Notes under the pieces: generated by a model
Databases searched by the model: none
Told to the model about the DNA's origin: nothing
The model's input: the letters and a program-made list of their open reading frames with translations, nothing else
Translations under genes and position numbers: made by a program
Part shown: positions 3,108 through 52,301 of the stretch, one piece after another
Numbering within the stretch: position 1 is the first letter of the stretch
Layout of the letters: every line of letters starts with the position of its first letter
Origin: Candidatus Omnitrophota bacterium
Lineage (GTDB): Bacteria > Omnitrophota > Omnitrophia > Omnitrophales > Aquincolibacteriaceae
Direction: 5' to 3'
DNA length: 64,000 bases
Assembly: GCA_903884815.1 (NCBI GenBank)
Contig: CAISGE010000032.1
Location: 5,978 to 69,977, forward strand

Positions 3108-4294
3108 AGAAAGTCGTACTAGCATATTCTGGAGGTCTTGATACCTCTTGCGCGGTGAAATGGCTCGGCGAACAGCACGAGCTGGACGTGGTCTGTTTCT
3201 GCGCTTTTATCGGGGAAGTGAAAGAGAAAGCCCCGCTCATCAAGAGGGCCAAGGCTGCGGGAGCGATCAAGACCTATATCGTGGATCTCAAGGCGGAATT
3301 TGCTCGGGACTATATTATGCCGGCGCTCTGGGCGCACGCGCGTTACGAAGGCAAGTACCCTCTCGCGACGGCGCTCGGACGGCCCATGATCGCGAAGCAT
3401 CTCGTGGATGTCGCCCACAAGGAAGGTGCCGAGTTCGTGGCGCACGGCTGCACGGGGAAGGGGAATGACCAGGTGCGTCTCGAGGTCGGGGTGCGGACGC
3501 TCGACGCGGATCTGAAGATCATCGCGCCTCTCAGGGACTGGGAATTCAAGACGCGCGAAGAAGAGATCGAATACGCCAAAGACCGGAACATCCCGATCGA
3601 TGTGACGAAGAAGAGCATTTATTCCATCGATAAGAACATCTGGGGCATCGCGATCGAAGCGGGGATCCTGGAAGATCCTATGGTCGAGCCGCCGGAGAAC
3701 GCGTACGTGATGACCTGTGCCCCAGGGAAAGCTCCGAAGAAGCCGCGCTATATCGATATCCAATTTGTGAACGGTGTTCCCGTAAGCTTGAACGGAACGC
3801 GCATGCCGTTTGTGGCACTGATCGAAAAATTGAATCTGGTCGCGGGCGAGTACGGCGTTGGTCGTTTTGACATGATCGAGAATCGCCTTGTGGGGATCAA
3901 GAGCCGCGAGGTTTATGAAGCCCCGGCCGCGGATGTGCTGATCAAGGCGCACGAAGAACTCGAAGGGTTCGTGATGGACCGGGAATTTATCCACTACAAG
4001 AGACTTCTGTCCGAGAAATACGCGGAGCTTGCGTATTTCGGGCTTTGGTTCACGCCGCTTAAGAACGCCCTCGACGCGTTCTTCGCCTCGAACCAGTCCC
4101 GCGTGACCGGCAAGGTCCGGTTCAAGCTGGACCGGGGCCACGCGATCTGCGTGGGAAGGGAATCGAAGTTCGCTCTCTATAAAGAAAAACTCGCCACGTA
4201 TTCCAAAGGCGATCTGTTCGACCGGAAAGCCGCGACGGGGTTCATGAAGCTCTGGGGACTGCCGTACGAGGGAATGTATAAGCGTCAGGCGTAA
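3104..4294 (+). CDS. argG: argininosuccinate synthase
   Basis: AYSGGLDTS PP-loop, 396 aa; ATGA start/stop overlap with argF. Confidence 0.92.
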   Translation: MKKVVLAYSGGLDTSCAVKWLGEQHELDVVCFCAFIGEVKEKAPLIKRAKAAGAIKTYIVDLKAEFARDYIMPALWAHARYEGKYPLATALGRPMIAKHLVDVAHKEGAEFVAHGCTGKGNDQVRLEVGVRTLDADLKIIAPLRDWEFKTREEEIEYAKDRNIPIDVTKKSIYSIDKNIWGIAIEAGILEDPMVEPPENAYVMTCAPGKAPKKPRYIDIQFVNGVPVSLNGTRMPFVALIEKLNLVAGEYGVGRFDMIENRLVGIKSREVYEAPAADVLIKAHEELEGFVMDREFIHYKRLLSEKYAELAYFGLWFTPLKNALDAFFASNQSRVTGKVRFKLDRGHAICVGRESKFALYKEKLATYSKGDLFDRKAATGFMKLWGLPYEGMYKRQA

Positions 4295-4358
4295 AGCGTA
4301 CGGAGTACGGCGAAATGATTTTGCGTTACGCCGCACGCCTTACACCGTACGCCGTGCG
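4289..4358 (+). repeat. GTACGG-heptad hairpin repeat (REP-like), argG-argH junction
   Basis: gcgtacggagtacggcg...ccgtacgccgtgcg imperfect inverted tandem heptads. Confidence 0.6.
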
Positions 4359-22805: not shown

Positions 22806-25593
22806 TCTTCCCTTGGATTCGATCCTGCTGCGTGGGGTCAAGACCCACAATCTCAAAGATCTCGATTTAGAACTTCCGCATCGCAAGCTCTACGTTATTA
22901 CCGGAGTATCCGGTTCCGGCAAGTCCTCCCTGGCTTTTGATACGCTCTATGCCGAGGGTCAACGCCGCTATATTGAATCCGTTTCCGCCTACGCGCGGCA
23001 GTTCCTTGAACGCATGGCGAAGCCCGATGTGGCCTCGGCGTCCGGGATTCCTCCCGCTCTTGCCATTCAGGCCAAGAATGCCATCACGAATGCCCGATCC
23101 ACGGTCGGGACCCAAACTGAGATCAATGAATACCTCCGGGTCCTTTTCGCGCGGATCGGTCGGCCCCGGTGTCCCGATTGCCGCGAGCAAGTCGAAAAGT
23201 ATGATCCCGCGAAAGTCGCGGCGCGTCTTGCAGCGAAGTTTCCCGGTGAGGAAGCGCGCATCGCTTTTCAGATGGCGGTGGGGAAAAGCACCGCGAAATA
23301 TCTGCGCGAGAATCTGGAAGAGCTGGAGCGTCAGGGGTTCGGCTCGTTTTTCTATGACGGGGCCTGGATCGACGCGGCATCTTTGATCAGGAAAAAAGCT
23401 ATTTTGAAAACACTGCGCGTGAGCGTGGACCTTGTGAAGATCACCCCGGCGAATAAGGAACGTCTTACGGATTCTCTGGAGCAGGCCTTTCGCCTTGGCC
23501 GCAATGAGGCCCAAGTGGGGGTGGCTGGTAAAGATCTGGAATTTTCCGAGACGCTCCGGTGCGCCTCCTGCGGGCGTTCATTCCCTGAGCCGACGCCCAA
23601 TCTTTTTTCCTTCAACAGCCCCCTCGGCGCGTGTTCTACCTGCCAGGGATTTGGCCGCGTCATCACGATCGATTGGGATCTCGTCGTGCCGGATCCGGAG
23701 AAGTCGATCCGGGAGGGCGTGATCGAGCCGTGGACCAAAGCCAGCACCCGCTGGGAACAGGGACAGCTCCTTGATTTTTGCGAACGCAAGCGGATCTCTG
23801 TACGCCTGCCTTGGAAGGATCTGAAGGCCCAGCATCGGAAGTGGATCCTGGAAGGTTATGAAGGCGACGAGTTCGCGAGCGTTCGCGACTTTTTTGAGTA
23901 CATGAATAAAAAGGCCTACCGGATGCATGTGAGGATCTTCCTCAATCGTTATCGCGGCTACGCGCCTTGCGGGACTTGCCACATGACCCGGCTTAAGCCT
24001 GAAGCGATGGATTTCCTGGTGCGCGAAAAAAATATCGCGCAGGCGCAGGCCCTTAGCATTGAGGAGCTTTATCCGTTCCTTGAGACGCTGGAACCCACCG
24101 CAGAGGAAAAGGAAAAAGTCGAGCCCGTTCTCGAGGAGCTGCTTGCGCGCGTGCGGTTCTTGAAGGACGTCGGCCTGGGTTATCTCACGCTTGACCGCAT
24201 GTCGCGCACGCTTTCGGGCGGGGAGGTGGAGCGGATCCATCTGGCGAGTTCCCTGGGGTCCGCGCTCGTGGACACGCTTTACGTGCTGGATGAACCGAGT
24301 ATCGGACTTCATGAGCGCGATAACCAGATGCTGATCGCCCTTCTCCGGAAATTGCGAGATCTCGGGAACACGGTCGTGGTCGTGGAGCATGACCGGACCA
24401 TGATCATGGCCGCGGACAGCGTGATCGATTTGGGGCCCGCGGGCGGCGCGAAAGGCGGAGAGCTTATCTTTCAGGGAAGTCCGGAAGATCTCAAAAAATA
24501 TCCGGGTTCCGTGACGGGGGAATATCTGGCCGGCAAACGCGCCATTACCCGGAGGGTTCGCCCTGCTGCTGATGAATCGCGGAGGATCACGGTCCGCGGG
24601 GCGACGGCGCATAATTTAAAAGAGATCGATGTCGATATTCCCCTTGGCCGCTTTACGGTCCTGACGGGCGTGTCCGGATCCGGGAAAAGTACGTTCCTTT
24701 ACGAGATCCTCTATAATCATTTTCTTAAGTTCAAAGGTCGTCCGGTGTCGCAGGAGGAACTGGGGACGGTGAAAAAGATCCGCGGTTTTGAGCCTCTGTC
24801 GGATATGGTGCTGATCGACCAATCACCGCTCGGTCGTTCGCCACGTTCCAATCCCGCCACTTATATGAAGGCGTTCGAGGATATCCGCAAGATCTTCGCG
24901 GCGACGCCTGAGGCCCGGCGTGAAGGGTTCGACGCGGGGCATTTTTCTTTCAATGTCGAAAAGGGCCGCTGCCCGGTTTGCGAAGGGGACGGCGCGGTGA
25001 AAGTCGAGATGCATTTCCTGGCGGATATTTTTGTGCCCTGCGAAGAATGCCATGGGAAGCGTTTCAAGCCTGAAGTGCTCGAGATTCGGTATCAGGGAAA
25101 AAACATCGATCAAGTTCTTGCGATGACGGTTGAGGAGGTCTTGGATTTTCTGGGTCATCACCGGGGGCTCGTCGAGAAACTTTCCATTCTCAAGAAGATC
25201 GGCCTTGGTTATTTACGGCTCGGGCAACCGACACTCACCCTTTCGGGAGGGGAGGCCCAGCGCCTGAAGCTTGCGTTCGAACTATTGAGTGGGACTTCCG
25301 GACCGTCCCTTTATCTCCTCGATGAACCGACGACAGGGCTCCATGAGGACGATGTCCAGCATCTCGTCCGTGCTTTTGAAGAGCTTCTCGATCGGGGGCA
25401 TTCCCTCCTTGTGATCGAGCATCATTTGGGGCTGATCGGCCTCGCCGATCATGTGATCGATCTCGGGCCGGAAGGCGGGGACAAGGGAGGGCAAGTCGTT
25501 TATCAAGGGGATATTGCCGGTCTGGTGGCGTGTGAGGCCTCGTATACAGGGAAATATCTTAAAAGATATTTCCGGGAAACGGGTAACGGGTAA
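22783..25593 (+). CDS. uvrA: excinuclease ABC subunit A
   Basis: 936 aa with duplicated ABC ATPase modules (GVSGSGKSS twice), zinc-finger cysteines and ABC signature LSGGE; the annotated start codon is TTG overlapping the upstream gene, so the start is uncertain. Confidence 0.88.
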   Translation: MVARLTPDLPLDSILLRGVKTHNLKDLDLELPHRKLYVITGVSGSGKSSLAFDTLYAEGQRRYIESVSAYARQFLERMAKPDVASASGIPPALAIQAKNAITNARSTVGTQTEINEYLRVLFARIGRPRCPDCREQVEKYDPAKVAARLAAKFPGEEARIAFQMAVGKSTAKYLRENLEELERQGFGSFFYDGAWIDAASLIRKKAILKTLRVSVDLVKITPANKERLTDSLEQAFRLGRNEAQVGVAGKDLEFSETLRCASCGRSFPEPTPNLFSFNSPLGACSTCQGFGRVITIDWDLVVPDPEKSIREGVIEPWTKASTRWEQGQLLDFCERKRISVRLPWKDLKAQHRKWILEGYEGDEFASVRDFFEYMNKKAYRMHVRIFLNRYRGYAPCGTCHMTRLKPEAMDFLVREKNIAQAQALSIEELYPFLETLEPTAEEKEKVEPVLEELLARVRFLKDVGLGYLTLDRMSRTLSGGEVERIHLASSLGSALVDTLYVLDEPSIGLHERDNQMLIALLRKLRDLGNTVVVVEHDRTMIMAADSVIDLGPAGGAKGGELIFQGSPEDLKKYPGSVTGEYLAGKRAITRRVRPAADESRRITVRGATAHNLKEIDVDIPLGRFTVLTGVSGSGKSTFLYEILYNHFLKFKGRPVSQEELGTVKKIRGFEPLSDMVLIDQSPLGRSPRSNPATYMKAFEDIRKIFAATPEARREGFDAGHFSFNVEKGRCPVCEGDGAVKVEMHFLADIFVPCEECHGKRFKPEVLEIRYQGKNIDQVLAMTVEEVLDFLGHHRGLVEKLSILKKIGLGYLRLGQPTLTLSGGEAQRLKLAFELLSGTSGPSLYLLDEPTTGLHEDDVQHLVRAFEELLDRGHSLLVIEHHLGLIGLADHVIDLGPEGGDKGGQVVYQGDIAGLVACEASYTGKYLKRYFRETGNG

Positions 25594-25626
25594 CGGATGT
25601 CGAGTGCGTTCGGCGTTCCACGTTCT
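25575..25626 (+). repeat. GNAACGG-heptad repeat plus inverted CGTTC units, overlapping the uvrA stop
   Basis: gaaacgggtaacgggtaacgg ... gcgttcggcgttccacgttc. Confidence 0.55.
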
Positions 25627-29490: not shown

Positions 29491-29518
29491 CTTTACCCTC
29501 CTGCGCGCGGTGGTATAA
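29491..29518 (+). promoter_or_regulatory. putative sigma70-type promoter (TTTACC -35, 16-nt spacer, extended -10 TGgTATAAT) for rubrerythrin
   Basis: sequence inspection only. Confidence 0.4.
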
Positions 29519-29585
29519 TAACGCCTTGTTTCGGAAGGAATCCCCCCATCCGTGTCTTCCATTCTTTTAATTAATGGTGACAGGG

Positions 29586-29714
29586 ACGGTCCTGACTTTT
29601 ATTTTCTTTTTCGAAATGGTAGTCAGGACCGCCCCAATCTCAGCTTTGCTGAGATTGATTGGGATTGGGAAGGCCCCAATTTCCACGGCGTGGAAGTTGA
29701 TAGGTATTGGGGCT
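29586..29714 (+). promoter_or_regulatory. candidate structured RNA leader (copy A): four hairpins P1-P4 upstream of rubrerythrin
   Basis: P1 ggtcctgac/gtcaggacc with U-rich loop; P2 aatctcagc/gctgagatt; P3 gccccaat/attggggc enclosing P4 ttcca/tggaa; about 80% identical to the copy at 48390-48518 with compensatory changes in P1 and P4. Confidence 0.6.
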
Positions 29715-29758
29715 GGTCCTATTCCGGTGGCAATTCACTTCAACATCAGGAGGCTTGT

Positions 29759-30346
29759 ATGGCAGAATTTAAAGGAAGCAAAACGGCCGAAAATCTTATG
29801 AAGGCGTTCGCCGGGGAATCCCAGGCGCGCAATCGGTACTCCTATTATTCCAAGATTGCCTACAAGGAAGGTTACCGCCAGATCTCGAACATTTTCCAGG
29901 AGACCGCTGATAACGAAAAAGAACATGCCAAGCTTTTTTATAGTCAACTGATCAAGCATGGCTTGAACGAGAATCCCGTTGAGATCCACGCGACCTATCC
30001 TGTGGCGATGGGCGATACGCTTCATAATCTCGGCTATGCCGCCGCAGGGGAGAAGGAAGAATGGACGGATCTTTATCCGTCCTTCGCGGCAGTCGCGGAT
30101 CAGGAAGGTTTTTCTGATGTGGCGCGGACCTTCAAGCAGGTGGCGATGGTCGAAAAACGCCATGAAGAGCGGTACAGCAAGCTTCACAATGTCCTGGAAC
30201 AGCATAAACTTTTCGTCAAAGACGGAAAGGTTTACTGGAAATGCCTCGAATGCGGGTATATCGTTGAAGCCTCCAAGGCCCCCGAGCGTTGCCCTGTCTG
30301 TGATCATCCTCAGGGGCATTTTGAGATCTGGATCGAGAACTATTAA
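29759..30346 (+). CDS. rbr: rubrerythrin
   Basis: ferritin-like diiron four-helix region ([23 protein letters not shown]) plus C-terminal rubredoxin-like CxxC...CPVC; AGGAGG RBS before ATG 29759. The ORF-track N-terminal extension from 29552 covers a non-coding structured element. Confidence 0.85.
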
Positions 30347-31415: not shown

Positions 31416-31481
31416 AGTACGAGGTACGGAGTACGGGGTAAGGCGTGAAATTTTTTACTTCGTACGCCGTACTCCGTACAC
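31416..31481 (+). repeat. GTACGG-heptad hairpin repeat, fba downstream junction
   Basis: 13-bp perfect inverted repeat gtacggagtacgg / ccgtactccgtac with about 29-nt loop. Confidence 0.65.
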
Positions 31482-41498: not shown

Positions 41499-41572
41499 CA
41501 GTAAGGCGTACGGTGTACGGAGTAAGGCGAAAAGGCTTTACGCTGTACGCAAGACGCCTTACCCCGTACGGA
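41499..41572 (+). repeat. GTACGG/GTAAGG-heptad hairpin repeat, ACAD to ETF-QO junction
   Basis: gtaaggcgtacggtgtacggagtaaggcg ... acgccttaccccgtacgg. Confidence 0.65.
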
Positions 41573-45393: not shown

Positions 45394-45692
45394 CGGATTC
45401 TTTCTCTAACTGTCTTATATTCACCGTTATTGGTTTGGCGCCTCACACGCGATGAAGCCACCTGGATATATAACGAGTTTTTTGGGGATTCCTTGAATGG
45501 CTTTGTGCTGTCAGCCTATAAAAATAAATAAAAAACGGTGCTGGCTGAAAACAAATCGCCTTATTATAATATGCGCCTTCTATGCCGCACCTTCATAGCA
45601 CTTAACATATTTGCGGCATGGTACTGTTTTCCCGTAAATGCTTATATAAAAAAGTGTTGCGAACTCTTTTCACCCAATCAGGGAGGAACGTT

Positions 45693-46502
45693 ATGACGAC
45701 AGCTTATAATATCATCGTATGCGGGAGCCTGGTGCCTGACCCTCTTCAGACGCTGGAACCGATCCAGGGCCCGACGGGGCCCGCTCTCAAAAATGAAATG
45801 ATGCTGCCTTCCGTGCTCGATCCGTGGGCCGGACACTCCCTTTTTGAGGCTGCCAATCTCGCGAAACAGCATCCTGGAAGCAAGGTGACACTCCTGAGCA
45901 TCGGTCCCAAAGCCAAGCTCCAGCAGCTTATGATGATCATTGCCCAGAAGGTGCCCTTTGAACTTGTGTGTTTGGATGGCTCGGCGAGCGGTTTTATGGA
46001 CTCCCGCGAGGTCGCTGCGGCGCTGGCCGGAGCGATCGAGAAGATCCCGGGACTTGATAAGACGAAGCTTTTGGTGTTCGGAGGCTGCTCTTCGGCTTCC
46101 CGTGACTCGGGGACTACGATGCAGATGATCGCCGAGCAATTGGGGATCACGGACGTGTTTCTTGCCGTCGATGAACTCAAATTCCAGGCGGATGGCTCCT
46201 TCCGTCTCCTGGAACGTGTCGAAGGCGGACAGTATCAGGTTTCCACCTGCACTGGCGCACCGGTCGTGATCGGCTGGGCCACGGGGAATCTTCCCGAACC
46301 GCCGAACAACCCTCAGGTGGGTATGGCGAACATGCGCACCATCATGCCTTCGCTCCAGAAGGCGCAGCCGGCCGGACTCAAGACCGATGCCATCAAATTC
46401 GCGAGCGTCCAGCTTCCCGGGCAGCAGCGCCAGACCCGGATCGTCAAGGATACCCCTATCGACGAGATCGCCAAAGAAATCGTAACCTGGATAAAGGGCT
46501 AG
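45693..46502 (+). CDS. etfB: electron transfer flavoprotein beta subunit-like (FixA-like)
   Basis: ETF-beta fold pattern; GGGAGGA RBS before ATG 45693; the ORF-track start at 45618 lies in AT-rich promoter DNA. Confidence 0.72.
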   Translation: MTTAYNIIVCGSLVPDPLQTLEPIQGPTGPALKNEMMLPSVLDPWAGHSLFEAANLAKQHPGSKVTLLSIGPKAKLQQLMMIIAQKVPFELVCLDGSASGFMDSREVAAALAGAIEKIPGLDKTKLLVFGGCSSASRDSGTTMQMIAEQLGITDVFLAVDELKFQADGSFRLLERVEGGQYQVSTCTGAPVVIGWATGNLPEPPNNPQVGMANMRTIMPSLQKAQPAGLKTDAIKFASVQLPGQQRQTRIVKDTPIDEIAKEIVTWIKG

Positions 46503-46505
46503 ACC

Positions 46506-47540
46506 ATGGAAAAAATACTCTTTTTAGCGCATACGGATTCAAACGGCCAGCTTCCCAAAGTCGCGCTCGAAACTTTGAACGCGGCGCTTCAGATCAAGCA
46601 AGGTCTCGCGGGCTCCACGCTCACAATCGGTCTCGTCGGAGAAAATGTTCAGGCCGCTGCGGATCAGATCGCGTCTTGTGGCATGGAGAAAGCTTTGGGA
46701 GTCAGCGGTGCTGATTTCGGCATGTCGCGCTATGCCACGGACGTAAAAGCCGCGGCAGCGCTTGGGACCGCATCCGGAGCGACGATTATCATCGCCCCGG
46801 CCACTTCGCGTTTTTCACGGGCGCTCCCCGGAGCGGCGTTCCGTCTGAAGGCGACCATCGATACTCATGTGAGCGGCATTCAGTTCACCGAGGGTGTGTT
46901 GCAGATCCAGCGCTGGTATTACCGTCAGCGCATGATGGCAACGCTTACTCGCGTTGCGCGGCCCTGGATCATTGCGATTGATTCCGGCGTGTTCCCGCCT
47001 TGGCAGGGCACCAAAGGCTCGGCGAAAGTTGAGGCTGTTTCGGTCGCGGTAGCAGATCAGGAGAAGCGCACGAAGATGACGGGGATCGAAGCTCCTTCTG
47101 CGGATGCGCAAACGATCCGCCCGGAAGCCCAGATTCTGCTGGTCGCGGGCGCCGGTTGGACCAAGAAGCAGACGGATGGCCAGATCCATGCCAAAGAGGC
47201 CGAAAAACATATTCTGGATTTTCTCAAGCTTGCCAAAGCCTCACTTGGCAGCAGCAAGTCGCTTGTGGACCAGGGGTCGGAAGGGGAAGCCGTGCTGACT
47301 TGCATGAGTCATTTGAACCAGGTCGGGCAGACGGGCTCCACGCCGCGCCACCCGAAAGGGCTTTCTACCTGCTGCCATGGCGAAGAACCTCATGTGGTCG
47401 GTTGGCGCTTCATCAACGAACGCCGTGCGATCAATACGGATGCCAGCTGTGGTTGGGCGCAGGGCAAGGCCGATGTGCTTTATGTGGCCGATGCCTTTGC
47501 CGTCATGTCTAAGGTGAACGAACTTCTTGCCAAAGGCTAA
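46506..47540 (+). CDS. etfA: electron transfer flavoprotein alpha subunit-like (FixB-like, divergent)
   Basis: N-terminal ETF domain and divergent C-terminal FAD-binding region (RAINTDASCGWAQGKADVLYVADAFAV aligning to the ETF-alpha INKD...AD.GIVGD region). Confidence 0.68.
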   Translation: MEKILFLAHTDSNGQLPKVALETLNAALQIKQGLAGSTLTIGLVGENVQAAADQIASCGMEKALGVSGADFGMSRYATDVKAAAALGTASGATIIIAPATSRFSRALPGAAFRLKATIDTHVSGIQFTEGVLQIQRWYYRQRMMATLTRVARPWIIAIDSGVFPPWQGTKGSAKVEAVSVAVADQEKRTKMTGIEAPSADAQTIRPEAQILLVAGAGWTKKQTDGQIHAKEAEKHILDFLKLAKASLGSSKSLVDQGSEGEAVLTCMSHLNQVGQTGSTPRHPKGLSTCCHGEEPHVVGWRFINERRAINTDASCGWAQGKADVLYVADAFAVMSKVNELLAKG

Positions 47541-48303: not shown

Positions 48304-48389
48304 CCGTGGCTTTTCCGAAAAAATCAGGTGGCGCAAATATAGTTTGTGCTATCCTTGTCTCGAGTTCTCTTCTTAAGTGGCGACAAGGA

Positions 48390-48518
48390 CAGCCCTGACT
48401 TATAGTTTCTTTTTTTTGAAGGAGAGTCAGGGCAGCCCCAATCTCAGCTTCGCTTCGATTGATTGGAATTGGGACTGCCCCAATTTCAACATGGTTGAAA
48501 TTGATAAGAATTGGGACT
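48390..48518 (+). promoter_or_regulatory. candidate structured RNA leader (copy B) upstream of ETF-QO #2
   Basis: P1 gccctgac/gtcagggc; P2 and P3 with CCCCAAT/ATTGGG arms; P4 ttcaac/gttgaa. Same order and spacing as copy A; reading frame not conserved between the copies. Confidence 0.6.
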
Positions 48519-48570
48519 AGAATACCGCCTCTGTTTTGGAACTTTTTTACTACCTGAGATTTTTTTCCAT

Positions 48571-50256
48571 ATGTCAAAATCTGAAGTCATTCATACAGAT
48601 ATTCTGATCGTCGGAGGTGGTGTCGCGGGGCTTGCGACGGCCATCCACCTCGCGGATCTTATGGCCGCGGGAAATCCTCAGGAAGCAGGTGCCGCGCTTC
48701 CCTGGAAGATCCTAGTCCTCGAGAAGGGGAGCTCGATTGGAAGCCACACCCTTTCCGGTGCCGTGATCAATCCCGCGATCTTGAAGGAGCTTCTTCCCGA
48801 AGTTGATCCCAAGGATTATCCCTTCGAATCGCCTGTCACAAAAGACGATGTGTATTTCCTGACCCCCAAGCATGCCTTGCGAGCTCCCTTCACGCCTCCC
48901 TTTATGGGGAATCACGGCAATTCCGTGGTCTCGCTCGGGAAAATGACGCGCTGGCTCGCCGAGATCGCCGAAAAGAAAGGCGTTCAGATCTATTCGGGGT
49001 TCAGCGTCTCTGAGATGCTCTATGAGAACGGGCACGTGGTGGGAGCTCGGACCATTGATACGGGTGTGGATAAGCACGGAAAGCCGATGGACAATTTCCA
49101 GGCCGGCGACGAGATCCGCGCGAAGATCACTGTTTTGGCGGAAGGTCCCCGCGGCAGTCTGACCCGGGCACTTTGCCGCAAGCTTAAGTTGGACGAGAAG
49201 AGCAACCCCCAGGTCTATTCGACCGGCGTGAAGGAATTGTGGGATCTCCCGGAAGGAACGTTTGCCGCCGGGCGTGTCATGCATACGCTGGGATATCCTT
49301 TCGAATTCAACCATTTTGGCGGTGGTTTTGTTTATGGCCTGAACGGTCGCCAGGTCGTGGTCGGTATCGCGGCGGGATTGGATTATGTGGATCCCACATT
49401 TGATTCCCACGCGGCACTTCAGATCTATAAAACGCATCCCATGATCGCGAAGATCCTTGCGAAGGGAAAACTCCTGCGTTACGGCGCGAAGACGATCCCT
49501 GAAGGCGGTCTTTACTCCCTGCCGCAGCTTTATCATGACGGCGTGATGATCGTCGGGGATTCCGCCGGATTTCTCAGCATGCCGAGCCTCAAAGGGGTGC
49601 ATCTTGCGATCGAATCCGGGATGATGGCCGCAAAAACAGCGCTTGAAGCGCTTCAGAAAAACGATTTTTCCTCGAAGCAGCTCAGTCTTTACGCCACGCT
49701 TTTCGAAAAGAGCGCCGCTTTCAACACCCTTTCCAAGACCCGCAATTTCAGGGCCGGATTCGGGTATGGCATGATTCTGGGGGTGTTTCACTTCGCGATG
49801 CAGATCCTTACCGGTGGGCGAGGTATCACGCCGTCGGGGCGGATGAAGACGCATGAGGACGCGGCTTGTTATAAAGCGCTTGCGGATGTTCAAAAGCCTT
49901 TCTGTAAAAAATTCGCCAAGGAACTTGTTTTTGACAAGCAACTGACCTTTGATAAAGTCACGGATGTTTATTTTTCCGGCTCTAAGCACGATGAGGAGCA
50001 GCCTTGTCATCTTCGCGTCCTGGATTTTGAATTGTGCCGCAATGTTTGCATCCCGAAATTCGGCGGGCCGTGCCAGTATTTTTGCCCGGCCGAGGTCTAT
50101 GAAATCGTGACGGACCCGAAAACCGGGAAAAAAGATCTTCACCTTCATCCGGCCAATTGCGTGCATTGCAAGACCTGTGATATCAAGGACCCGTTTGGCA
50201 ACATTGAATGGGCCGTGCCATACGGCGGTGACGGGCCGGAGTACGAAAATTTGTAA
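48571..50256 (+). CDS. electron-transfer flavoprotein:quinone oxidoreductase (second paralog)
   Basis: ILIVGGGVAGLATA FAD motif, C-terminal CPAEVYE...CVHCKTCDIKDP 4Fe-4S region typical of ETF-QO. Confidence 0.85.
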   Translation: MSKSEVIHTDILIVGGGVAGLATAIHLADLMAAGNPQEAGAALPWKILVLEKGSSIGSHTLSGAVINPAILKELLPEVDPKDYPFESPVTKDDVYFLTPKHALRAPFTPPFMGNHGNSVVSLGKMTRWLAEIAEKKGVQIYSGFSVSEMLYENGHVVGARTIDTGVDKHGKPMDNFQAGDEIRAKITVLAEGPRGSLTRALCRKLKLDEKSNPQVYSTGVKELWDLPEGTFAAGRVMHTLGYPFEFNHFGGGFVYGLNGRQVVVGIAAGLDYVDPTFDSHAALQIYKTHPMIAKILAKGKLLRYGAKTIPEGGLYSLPQLYHDGVMIVGDSAGFLSMPSLKGVHLAIESGMMAAKTALEALQKNDFSSKQLSLYATLFEKSAAFNTLSKTRNFRAGFGYGMILGVFHFAMQILTGGRGITPSGRMKTHEDAACYKALADVQKPFCKKFAKELVFDKQLTFDKVTDVYFSGSKHDEEQPCHLRVLDFELCRNVCIPKFGGPCQYFCPAEVYEIVTDPKTGKKDLHLHPANCVHCKTCDIKDPFGNIEWAVPYGGDGPEYENL

Positions 50257-50257
50257 A

Positions 50258-50283
50258 CGAGTACGGAGTACGGTGTGTGGCGA
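50258..50283 (+). repeat. GTACGG-heptad repeat (short copy), ETF-QO2 to etfBA junction
   Basis: cgagtacggagtacggtgtgtggcg. Confidence 0.5.
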
Positions 50284-50339
50284 AAAAGATTTTAGTTGCT
50301 GTGCTCCGCACCTCGCGCGCTGTCCAAAGTAAGGAATCT

Positions 50340-52301
50340 ATGGGACTTAAAATTATAACGATTATGAAGCAAGTGCCGCTTCCTACCGAGATGCGTATGG
50401 GAGCCGACGGTCTTATGGACCGCACCAAGGCAAAATCCTCGATTAATGCGGATTGCACGTTCGGTCTTGAGCAGGGGCTTCAGATCAAAAAGCATGTTCC
50501 CGATGCTGAGCTCATTGTTGTATCGATGGGGCCGACGAGTTTTGAGCAATCGCTTAAAAAAGCTTTGGCGATGGGCTACGATCGTGCGGTCCTTCTTTCC
50601 GACAGGAAACTCGGGGGCTCCGATACCTTTGCCACCGGCTACGCGATCGCCTCCCTTCTCAAGAAGCTCGGGTTCTCGAAGGACAGCAAAGAACCTTTCA
50701 TTATTTTCTCAGGTCGCCAGACGACGGATGGTGACACGGCTCACGTGCCCTCCCAAACTGCCGAGAATCTCGGCATTCCCCAGGCCACTTTTGTTGAAAA
50801 GGTGGAGTACAAGGGCGATCATCTGAAAGTCCGCCGTATTATTGAAGGCGGCTACCAGGTCCTCAAAGTTCCCATACCGTGTCTCATTTCCATAGCTCCG
50901 ACGGCGACGCCGGCCCGCCGGCCTTCTCTCAAAGGTGCCATACGCGCCAGGAGCACGAAAACCGAGATCTGGTCACTGGATCAAACTGGGGCTGATGCGA
51001 GCGTGGTGGGCTTGAGCGGTTCGCCGACTCTCGTCTCAAAAGTCGTGGATATTCAAAAGAACAGGCCTGCTGTGAACATGATTTCGGGTCATGAGCCGAA
51101 GGATCTGGCGGACACCCTCGTTGCCGAGATCGAAAAGATCAAGGATTCGATGGGTGGGGCTCACGGAGGCCATGAAGAATCGGATCAAAAAAACGATGCT
51201 GTGGCGGCCAAGGCGGACGTGGATTTCCCGAGGGTTGATTTCCGGAAAGACGCTCGTGGCGTCCTGACATGGATCGAAATGCACGGCGATACACCGGCAC
51301 GGTCCTCTCTGGAGATCCTAAATCCCGCGCGAAAACTGGCGGACCAGCTTAAGACCCAGGTGACCGCGGTCATTACGGGGCATAACATCAAAGGTGTGGC
51401 TGCCGAGATCATTGCTTATGGAGCGGATGAAGTGGTGGTGGTCGATGACCCCCGCCTTAAGGAATACAGGATCCTTCCCTTGGCCGCAGTCCTGACACAA
51501 TGGATGGAACATAAACGTCCTGAAATCGCACTTTTTGGCGCGACGACTTCGGGTCGGGAACTGGCGCCTCGCATCGCGAGTCGCGTTCACGCGGGCGTGA
51601 CCGCCGATTGCACAAGTCTAAGGATCGGGGAATACGCGCATCGCATGAAGAAAACGATTTTCTATCCTGTGCTGGAGTCCATTCGTCCGACTTACGGAGA
51701 GAGCAAGCTCGCGACGATCATCGGATTTTGGTGCCCGCAAATGGCGACTGCGCGTTCCGGAACCTTCAAGATCCTGCCAAAAGACCTATCGCGGAAGGGG
51801 ACGGTTCGCGAATTCACCCCCACTTTCAGGGACAGCGATTTCTGCGTCGAAGTGCTCGAGACGAAGCGCGAGGCCGGGGGCGGGGATAATCTCTTTGTTG
51901 CCGATATTATTATTTCCGGCGGTCGTCCGGCCGGAGATCATGACGATTTCAAGCTGATCAAGGACCTTGTGCAGGCTCTTCAGGAGCGCGGGATCAACGC
52001 CGATTGGGGCGCGAGCCGCCACGCGGTGGATAACGGATATGCGCCATACGCGCGCCAGATCGGCCAGACAGGAAAGACCGTTCGCCCGAAGCTTTATATC
52101 GCAGTCGCGATCTCCGGGGCGATACAGCATCTTGCGGGGATGAAGGAATCGGGTAAGATCATCGCGATCAATCAAGACCCTCAGGCCGCGATCTTCCGTC
52201 ATGCGGATTTTGGCATCGTCCGCGATTACCGGGAAGTTCTTCCGGAGCTGATCGCCAAGGTTAAGGCGGGTTTCACGTTTGGTTTGGCCGCGGGGAAATA
52301 G
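50340..52301 (+). CDS. fused electron transfer flavoprotein beta-alpha (EtfB-EtfA) protein
   Basis: N-terminal ETF-beta (MGLKIITIMKQVP...) and C-terminal ETF-alpha with ISGAIQHLAGMK FAD signature in one 653 aa ORF; AAGGAA RBS. Confidence 0.8.
   Translation: MGLKIITIMKQVPLPTEMRMGADGLMDRTKAKSSINADCTFGLEQGLQIKKHVPDAELIVVSMGPTSFEQSLKKALAMGYDRAVLLSDRKLGGSDTFATGYAIASLLKKLGFSKDSKEPFIIFSGRQTTDGDTAHVPSQTAENLGIPQATFVEKVEYKGDHLKVRRIIEGGYQVLKVPIPCLISIAPTATPARRPSLKGAIRARSTKTEIWSLDQTGADASVVGLSGSPTLVSKVVDIQKNRPAVNMISGHEPKDLADTLVAEIEKIKDSMGGAHGGHEESDQKNDAVAAKADVDFPRVDFRKDARGVLTWIEMHGDTPARSSLEILNPARKLADQLKTQVTAVITGHNIKGVAAEIIAYGADEVVVVDDPRLKEYRILPLAAVLTQWMEHKRPEIALFGATTSGRELAPRIASRVHAGVTADCTSLRIGEYAHRMKKTIFYPVLESIRPTYGESKLATIIGFWCPQMATARSGTFKILPKDLSRKGTVREFTPTFRDSDFCVEVLETKREAGGGDNLFVADIIISGGRPAGDHDDFKLIKDLVQALQERGINADWGASRHAVDNGYAPYARQIGQTGKTVRPKLYIAVAISGAIQHLAGMKESGKIIAINQDPQAAIFRHADFGIVRDYREVLPELIAKVKAGFTFGLAAGK

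Follow-up and report, generated by a model that had tools for sequence, protein, structure and literature searches.

The structured element upstream of the ETF-QO gene (copy B) belongs to a dispersed family of short, non-coding, hairpin-forming repeats whose modules are insertions, and it lies upstream of a -10 box that is conserved in orthologous loci. Very probably, copy B is an insertion element that remodelled the ETF-QO promoter, and not an RNA switch. According to the mechanism proposed here, modules made of one X and one Y hairpin would spread as DNA through Candidatus Omnitrophota genomes, each insertion being marked by a direct repeat of 3 nt (C-N-R, usually CTA), and could insert into one another to give the XXYY architecture. 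Copy B would have landed on a CTA overlapping the start of the ETF-QO -10 hexamer, displacing the 'TG' of an ancestral extended -10 by 168 bp upstream (165-nt insert plus one CTA) and placing its own TTGAAA at the -35 position. The most likely local effect of copy B would be conversion of the promoter from the extended -10 type to a -35/-10 hybrid; the mobilising enzyme was presumably supplied in trans. Promoter activity and the direction of any effect on expression are predicted from the sequence. Coordinates refer to the window (i.e. the whole 64,000-nt stretch of DNA that was analysed), and the loci used for comparison carry L numbers.

Copy B and the ETF-QO promoter

The original prediction described a second copy of the element in the window, and this was confirmed: 29602-29714 and 48406-48518 form a direct repeat of 113 nt with 78% identity, and pairwise alignment of copies A and B gave 79% identity over ~170 nt, after which the similarity is lost entirely. 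The nhmmer E-values for copies A and B were 2.5e-53 and 3.4e-51, with a profile made from these same two copies. The span first assigned to copy B (48385-48570) missed both of its ends: an extra upstream hairpin, X0, occupies 48351-48390, so the true start is 48351, and the true end is 48517. The features of the region, all on the + strand, are as follows:

48347-48351, +: left junction TGCTA, with the putatively displaced extended -10 'TG' and the left CTA direct repeat (48349-48351)
48351-48517, +: copy B, a 167-nt composite X0-X1-Y1-Y2, upstream of ETF-QO
48351-48390, +: X0 hairpin, arms ATCCTTGTC and GACAAGGAC, T-rich loop; belongs to the outer XY module
48392-48433, +: X1 hairpin (formerly P1), arms GCCCTGACT and AGTCAGGGC, loop TATAGTTTCTTTTTTTTGAAGGAG
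48436-48475, +: Y1 unit, CCCCAAT, imperfect inner hairpin, then TTGATTGGAATTGGGAC
48478-48517, +: Y2 unit, CCCCAAT, TTTCAAC/GTTGAAA hairpin with a covarying inner helix, then TTGATAAGAATTGGGAC
48495-48523, +: predicted hybrid sigma-70-like promoter, TTGAAA (48495-48500), 17 bp, TAGAAT (48518-48523)
48524-48570, +: native ETF-QO 5' UTR, ACCGCCTC..TTTTGGAA.., outside the repeat and unalignable to copy A
48571-50256, +: ETF-QO coding sequence, 561 aa, starting MSKSEV

Four covarying hairpins were found, as in the P1-P4 scheme proposed earlier, with a different extent: 48518-48570, which presumably corresponds to P4 and the leader (P4 had been given no coordinates), is not shared with copy A. Judged by its retention in element-free orthologues, this stretch is the native ETF-QO -10 box and 5' UTR. 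In the family alignment, six of the eight pairs of the X0 stem (helix 1) are changed on both sides. The Y1 unit scored 70.9 bits on the + strand and 17.9 bits on the - strand with covariance model R1. Both copies fold well as RNA, with a z-score of -5.7 for copy A and one of -2.6 for copy B, whose minus strand also folds well (-3.4).

As had been noted, the mechanically called ORF of ETF-QO starts inside the element, at TTG 48511; this TTG is part of the ATTGGGAC box in the last hairpin (Y2). The alternative start proposed at that time, ATG 48571, was borne out: public calls are 561 aa long, homologues (many of them named Candidatus Omnitrophota ETF-QO) have 547-569 aa, and orthologues align from this ATG only. 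The 581-aa ETF-QO ORF is thus a spurious annotation, explained by repeat copy B. The gene has no canonical Shine-Dalgarno sequence, again as stated before, and only a weak GAGA is present ~14-17 nt upstream of the ATG. A fused ETF beta-alpha gene (674 aa, 50277-52301) lies downstream of ETF-QO, and separate ETF-like genes lie upstream (45618-47540). The order DUF2490, ETF-QO, fused ETF is kept in the Omnitrophota loci L204, L205 and L207; L206 and L208 are without DUF2490.

Five orthologous loci (DUF2490, ETF-QO, fused ETF) were compared with the window. The element is present in L057, and X/Y units are absent from the other four (ETF-QO protein identity 86% for L204, 74% for L205, 70% for L206 and 65% for L207); in the three element-free loci that retain the DUF2490 gene the spacer is only ~100-120 nt. 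An extended -10 is common to the orthologous loci (TGgTAAAAT, TGtTAAAAT, TGtTACAAT, TGaTAAAAT) and is followed by an (A/G)CCGCC... leader. The -10 and the sequence downstream of it are conserved in L057, L204, L205, L206 and L207, and the ETF-QO 5' UTR is conserved among orthologues both with and without the element. The window junctions read ...tttgTGCTA(TCCTTGTC...ATTGGGACTA)GAATACCGCC..., and deletion of the element together with one CTA (48352-48519) restores TGcTAGAAT. This restored sequence and its match to the orthologues show that copy B is an insertion at a CTA overlapping the start of the -10 hexamer.

The promoter scan returned TTGAAA-17-TAGAAT (10 of 12 matches), in which the -35 lies inside Y2, the -10 is native and the first two bases of the -10 belong to the right CTA repeat (48517-48519). 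L057 (with TAAAAT) has the same TTGAAA-17-(-10) arrangement, as do unrelated copies of the element from L066 and L122. As copy B ends just before the conserved -10, no transcript started at this predicted promoter would contain it, which argues against the earlier proposal that its structure controls translation; read-through from the upstream ETF genes would put copy B inside an mRNA. The more distant orthologue L057 is filled and the closer L204 is empty, so loss, recombination or repeated insertion is needed to account for the distribution.

The repeat family and its insertion sites

With one genome taken for each species, a search for a pattern of two tandem units returned 75 loci, with ~30 true copies and the rest chance matches. 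The true copies came from 14 genome assemblies (11 titled Candidatus Omnitrophota or Omnitrophica, three 'uncultured bacterium'), with several copies per genome. When metagenomes were scanned with a single-Y pattern, matches were obtained on at least 116 contigs, and the basic unit was found to be one X plus one Y, ~84 nt long. In total, >180 elements were collected in ~145 loci; they are non-coding, multi-copy and dispersed, with units of 84-167 nt, a size and copy number typical of MITEs.

The X hairpin has a 9-bp stem, variable yet complementary, around a conserved T-rich loop of ~25 nt (..TTTTATTTTCTTTTCCTAAATGGTA..). It is joined by a 2-nt linker to Y, which consists of CCCCAAT, a variable 6-7-bp hairpin and TTGA-N5-ATTGGGAC. 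An alignment of 17 full-length members supports the four hairpins, with 91% pairing and 11 pairs changed on both sides (26-45% pairing in slid controls), and the Y inner helix covaries in four of its six pairs. Among 74 distinct modules, 28 different 9-nt X arms occur and are 98% Watson-Crick paired, as against 77% with shuffled partners; this set had been selected for pairing, so its informative part is the diversity of pair types. RNAalifold proposed an alternative with long-range Y1/Y2 pairing, which is indistinguishable from the four-hairpin model because it rests only on the invariant boxes. With the Y covariance model, sense units scored 50-71 bits and the opposite strand 18 bits at most, and the only matches in the window were the units of copies A and B. 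Searches of Rfam 15 at gathering and E-value thresholds returned noise only (maximum 17 bits), and tRNA and tmRNA searches gave no match. The sequences of the loops and Y boxes have stayed conserved between genomes whose coding DNA is only ~77% identical; they may be recognition sites for a trans-acting enzyme, or may serve a host function.

Tandem X/Y arrays with an 84-nt period and a variable number of units, up to XYXYYXY, are found in L045 (7721-7999, - strand) and L051 (3904-4164, - strand). L074 has degenerate Y-like hairpins (CCCAATT...AATTGGG) at 190-290, upstream of a full element, and these resemble old copies that have decayed. In L079 (1681-1853, +) and L064 (7614-7789, +), two minus-strand genes flank a full XXYY element in antisense, whose GGGACTAG end overlaps the TAG stop codon of an 823-aa gene.

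Insertion was evident from clean comparisons of filled and empty sites in three protein-coding genes. The aconitase gene of L066 is longer by exactly 84 nt (28 aa), in frame, than those of L087 and L122; the histidine kinase of L167 has 28 aa more than that of L090; and the UvrA of L108 has 56 aa (168 nt) more than the window's own UvrA, to which it is 83% identical. The window UvrA (22813-25596) is the empty allele, with the site near 23535, and the insertion is present in L108, L111 and L194. Seven module-bearing ORFs (AddA, AddB, three UvrA, a histidine kinase and a Nuo51-like protein) were confirmed with Pfam and an eighth host gene, aconitase, by PDB matches. With a crude ORF-based gene caller, ~10% of the elements (19 of 188) were placed inside long ORFs.

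The terminal direct repeat was assessed in 55 genomically flanked modules by setting the trinucleotide at the left junction (two flank bases, then the first base of the stem) against the one that begins with the C of GGGAC. A 3-nt C-N-R repeat (usually CTA) matched in 41 modules, a number reached in none of 2000 permutations, and this is consistent with a target duplication of a few bases or with a repeated cleavage site. Filled and empty sites, and a duplication within the 2-10 bp of classical MITEs, are therefore both present, while the terminal inverted repeat is only ~4 nt (RTCC...GGAY), short of the classical 10-15 bp or more, and the palindromes are internal. A longer target duplication of 8-9 bp, or an X arm derived from the target (L141, L107, L147, L142), was considered and rejected, as adjacent degenerate units explain these cases better. 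No transposase or autonomous partner was found; the loci covered were 1-14 kb long.

The nested architecture is best seen at the rubrerythrin locus, with the following features:

29492-29519, +: rubrerythrin promoter-like site, TTTACC-16-TGgTATAAT
29548-29713, +: copy A, X0-X1-Y1-Y2, in the predicted rubrerythrin 5' UTR, downstream of the promoter-like site
29588-29671, +: inner 84-nt module of copy A, exactly at the X/Y junction of an older XY

The orthologous rubrerythrin loci share the promoter-like TTTACC-N16/17-TATAAT and the beginning of the 5' UTR. Two of the three are empty (L209, 89%; L211, 79%), and L210 (88%) carries a single XY at the position of copy A. Alignment with L210 shows 84 extra columns in the window; on this comparison copy A is a nested double insertion, and the XXYY architecture arises by nested insertion of one module into another. 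By analogy with copy A and L210, the X1 of copy B would be part of an inner nested module. Copy A sits in a predicted 5' UTR and copy B upstream of a -10, which argues against a shared regulatory logic. The 75-aa ORF at 29574-29801 (also L004, 222-449) is almost certainly a spurious annotation: called as a gene in some public assemblies, it is copy A running into the rubrerythrin start. The rubrerythrin neighbour in L211 (1-599) is annotated as a protein of 7831 aa, among the giant proteins reported for Omnitrophota.

Neighbouring genes and alternative readings

The genes downstream of family members, named here from their own sequences, encode rubrerythrin, ETF-QO, LipA-like radical SAM, MraY-like, flavin-reductase-like, glycosyltransferase-like, LpxL-like, flippase-like, RecX-like, permease-like, LptF/G-like, inositol-monophosphatase-like and TolC-like proteins and a small basic protein. 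They are functionally unrelated, so the family is no marker of a regulon.

Orientation relative to genes was scored with the crude ORF-based caller. Single XY modules showed no bias (23 sense, 21 antisense), whereas YY-type composites, to which copies A and B belong, lay mostly in sense orientation directly ahead of genes (14 against 3). Thirteen copies, ending in ...TTGA[AT]AGG[TA]ATT[GR]GGAC[TC]ATG, run straight into the start codon of an ORF with 60 codons or more, the AGGT box being 9-10 nt upstream. This abutment is enriched in the YY type (7 of 26, against 5 of 143 single XY; Fisher p = 4e-4), an indication that the last Y provides a Shine-Dalgarno sequence with its purine box, and some copies have probably been co-opted as 5' UTR or ribosome-binding modules.

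These observations, together with the conservation of loops and Y boxes described above, could be taken to mean that modules are kept as 5' UTR cassettes (an mRNA-stabilising 5' hairpin, a platform for S1 or another RNA-binding protein, and a ready-made ribosome-binding site) and that copy B is one such expression module. We consider this unlikely for copy B, as its start codon lies 53 nt beyond the element with the native -10 in between, and the Shine-Dalgarno role of the last Y is inapplicable there. A promoter-like site is likewise found downstream of the element in L045, L061 and L069 (TAGCCA-17-TATAAT), single modules are orientation-neutral and about a tenth of the elements lie apparently inside long ORFs; retention as cassettes would also leave the filled and empty sites unexplained.

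The linker base of XY co-varies with the terminal C-N-R repeat. This could point to a new self-nesting mobile hairpin element with guide-like site recognition, a reading that we regard as rather improbable. The target of XY would then be the junction between its own hairpins (GGAY-NR-YCC), along with genomic sites that resemble it; the co-variation could reflect a structure-specific recombinase, e.g. of the HUH or serine type; and the AGGT-N9-ATG subfamily would have been domesticated as a portable leader or ribosome-binding cassette for dozens of Omnitrophota genes. A strand bias as in IS200/IS605 was also looked for: relative to neighbouring modules, 17 are on the same strand and 18 on the opposite one, and relative to GC skew the counts are 70 against 60, i.e. 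there is no bias. The analogy with integron attC sites was rejected, since the copies lie scattered among housekeeping genes and their arms do not represent conserved core sites.

It is very unlikely that the palindromes (ATTGGGAC-NG-CCCCAAT etc.) form a DNA operator array bound by a dimeric transcription factor or a nucleoid protein. The invariant CCCCAAT and ATTGGG boxes do form palindromes across unit junctions, and copy B overlaps a promoter; however, the stems vary freely yet stay complementary (as the 28 X arms illustrate), unlike evolving operators, copies occur inside coding genes and 5' UTRs, and no common regulon is apparent. Two promoter candidates were also discarded: a sigma-54 promoter considered by eye for the tail, whose GG/GC spacing misfits in both copies, and an internal TTGACA-17-TATTTT promoter across X0/X1 as a general feature, which is confined to one subfamily and would destroy the covarying X1 hairpin.

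The model first put forward, in which a riboswitch-like or protein-bound leader RNA controls ETF-QO translation and coordinates redox or electron-acceptor responses with the rubrerythrin copy, is extremely improbable: the covarying hairpins, the strong strand-specificity of the Y model, the position of copy A within the rubrerythrin 5' UTR and the lack of a canonical Shine-Dalgarno sequence in ETF-QO agree with it, but copy B lies upstream of the -10, the element is missing from most orthologous loci of both genes, its neighbours are unrelated, it occurs in both orientations and within coding sequences with no conserved 5' UTR position, no Rfam family matches, and the stems tolerate both G.T and A.C mismatches (G.U against A.C, 8 to 3 in X stems and mixed in Y stems), with no clear RNA-strand signature.

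Relation to known repeats

The hairpin repeats, read as insertion elements, are a new family of a known kind of selfish palindromic repeat (MITE-, RPE- or BOX-like repeats), closest in behaviour to RPE, BOX and Correia elements, and here they probably affect both the promoter of ETF-QO and the leader of rubrerythrin. Nothing relevant to such elements was found in the literature on Omnitrophota repeats or RNA motifs; the family is abundant in this uncultured phylum, was apparently previously undescribed and is apparently documented here for the first time.

RPE are short palindromic repeats that lie between genes and, in frame, within unrelated housekeeping genes, whose reading frame is preserved (review PMC10969869). 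The 28-aa and 56-aa in-frame segments in aconitase, UvrA, histidine kinase, AddA, AddB and the Nuo51-like protein are of the same kind. The likeness is one of behaviour; the host phylum is another one (Omnitrophota), the unit is smaller (84 nt, against ~100-150) and the module is built of two distinct hairpin types and is self-nesting.

Correia elements, the MITEs of Neisseria, are multi-copy, often lie just upstream of genes, have a TA-containing duplication and can donate promoter hexamers (PMC10969869). The Omnitrophota modules are likewise multi-copy, frequently upstream of genes and associated with a TA-containing duplication, and copy B supplies a predicted -35 to the ETF-QO -10. The terminal inverted repeats of Correia elements are 26 bp long and an IHF site is present, whereas the Omnitrophota modules have a terminal inverted repeat of ~4 nt and consist of internal hairpins.

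Pneumococcal BOX elements are made of ~45-60-nt boxes in variable number, form stable hairpins and are intergenic, clustering and inserting into one another (PMC10969869). The XY, XXYY and XYXYYXY arrays are similarly modular with a variable number of units; the sequences and the host are unrelated. BOX elements are not known to make in-frame genic insertions. With REP/REPIN sequences the family shares short palindromes, covarying stems and tens to hundreds of copies; in contrast to these, it has no 5' GTAG head, is not confined to extragenic DNA and does not form inverted doublets (17 same-strand and 18 opposite-strand neighbours).

Recognition of the family removes a false riboswitch or redox-regulon candidate and explains two spurious annotations, the 581-aa ETF-QO ORF and the 75-aa 'gene'. 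The repeat would rewire promoters and 5' UTRs, and enzymes of housekeeping and DNA repair (UvrA, AddAB, aconitase) gain 28-aa segments from it. In Omnitrophota MAGs, repeats of this sort interfere with gene calling, with assembly and with the discovery of RNA motifs; they are also natural markers for insertion polymorphism at the strain level.

A second small repeat, made of tandem heptamers (GTACGGAGTACGGGGTAAGGCG-like), occurs in the window at 4291-4327, 31424-31460, 41508-41544 and 50261-50297. For at least two of the four copies, a start codon (GTG 31445 and GTG 50277) directly follows the repeat or is overlapped by it; the heptamers may represent a second repeat family or a conserved context for ribosome binding.
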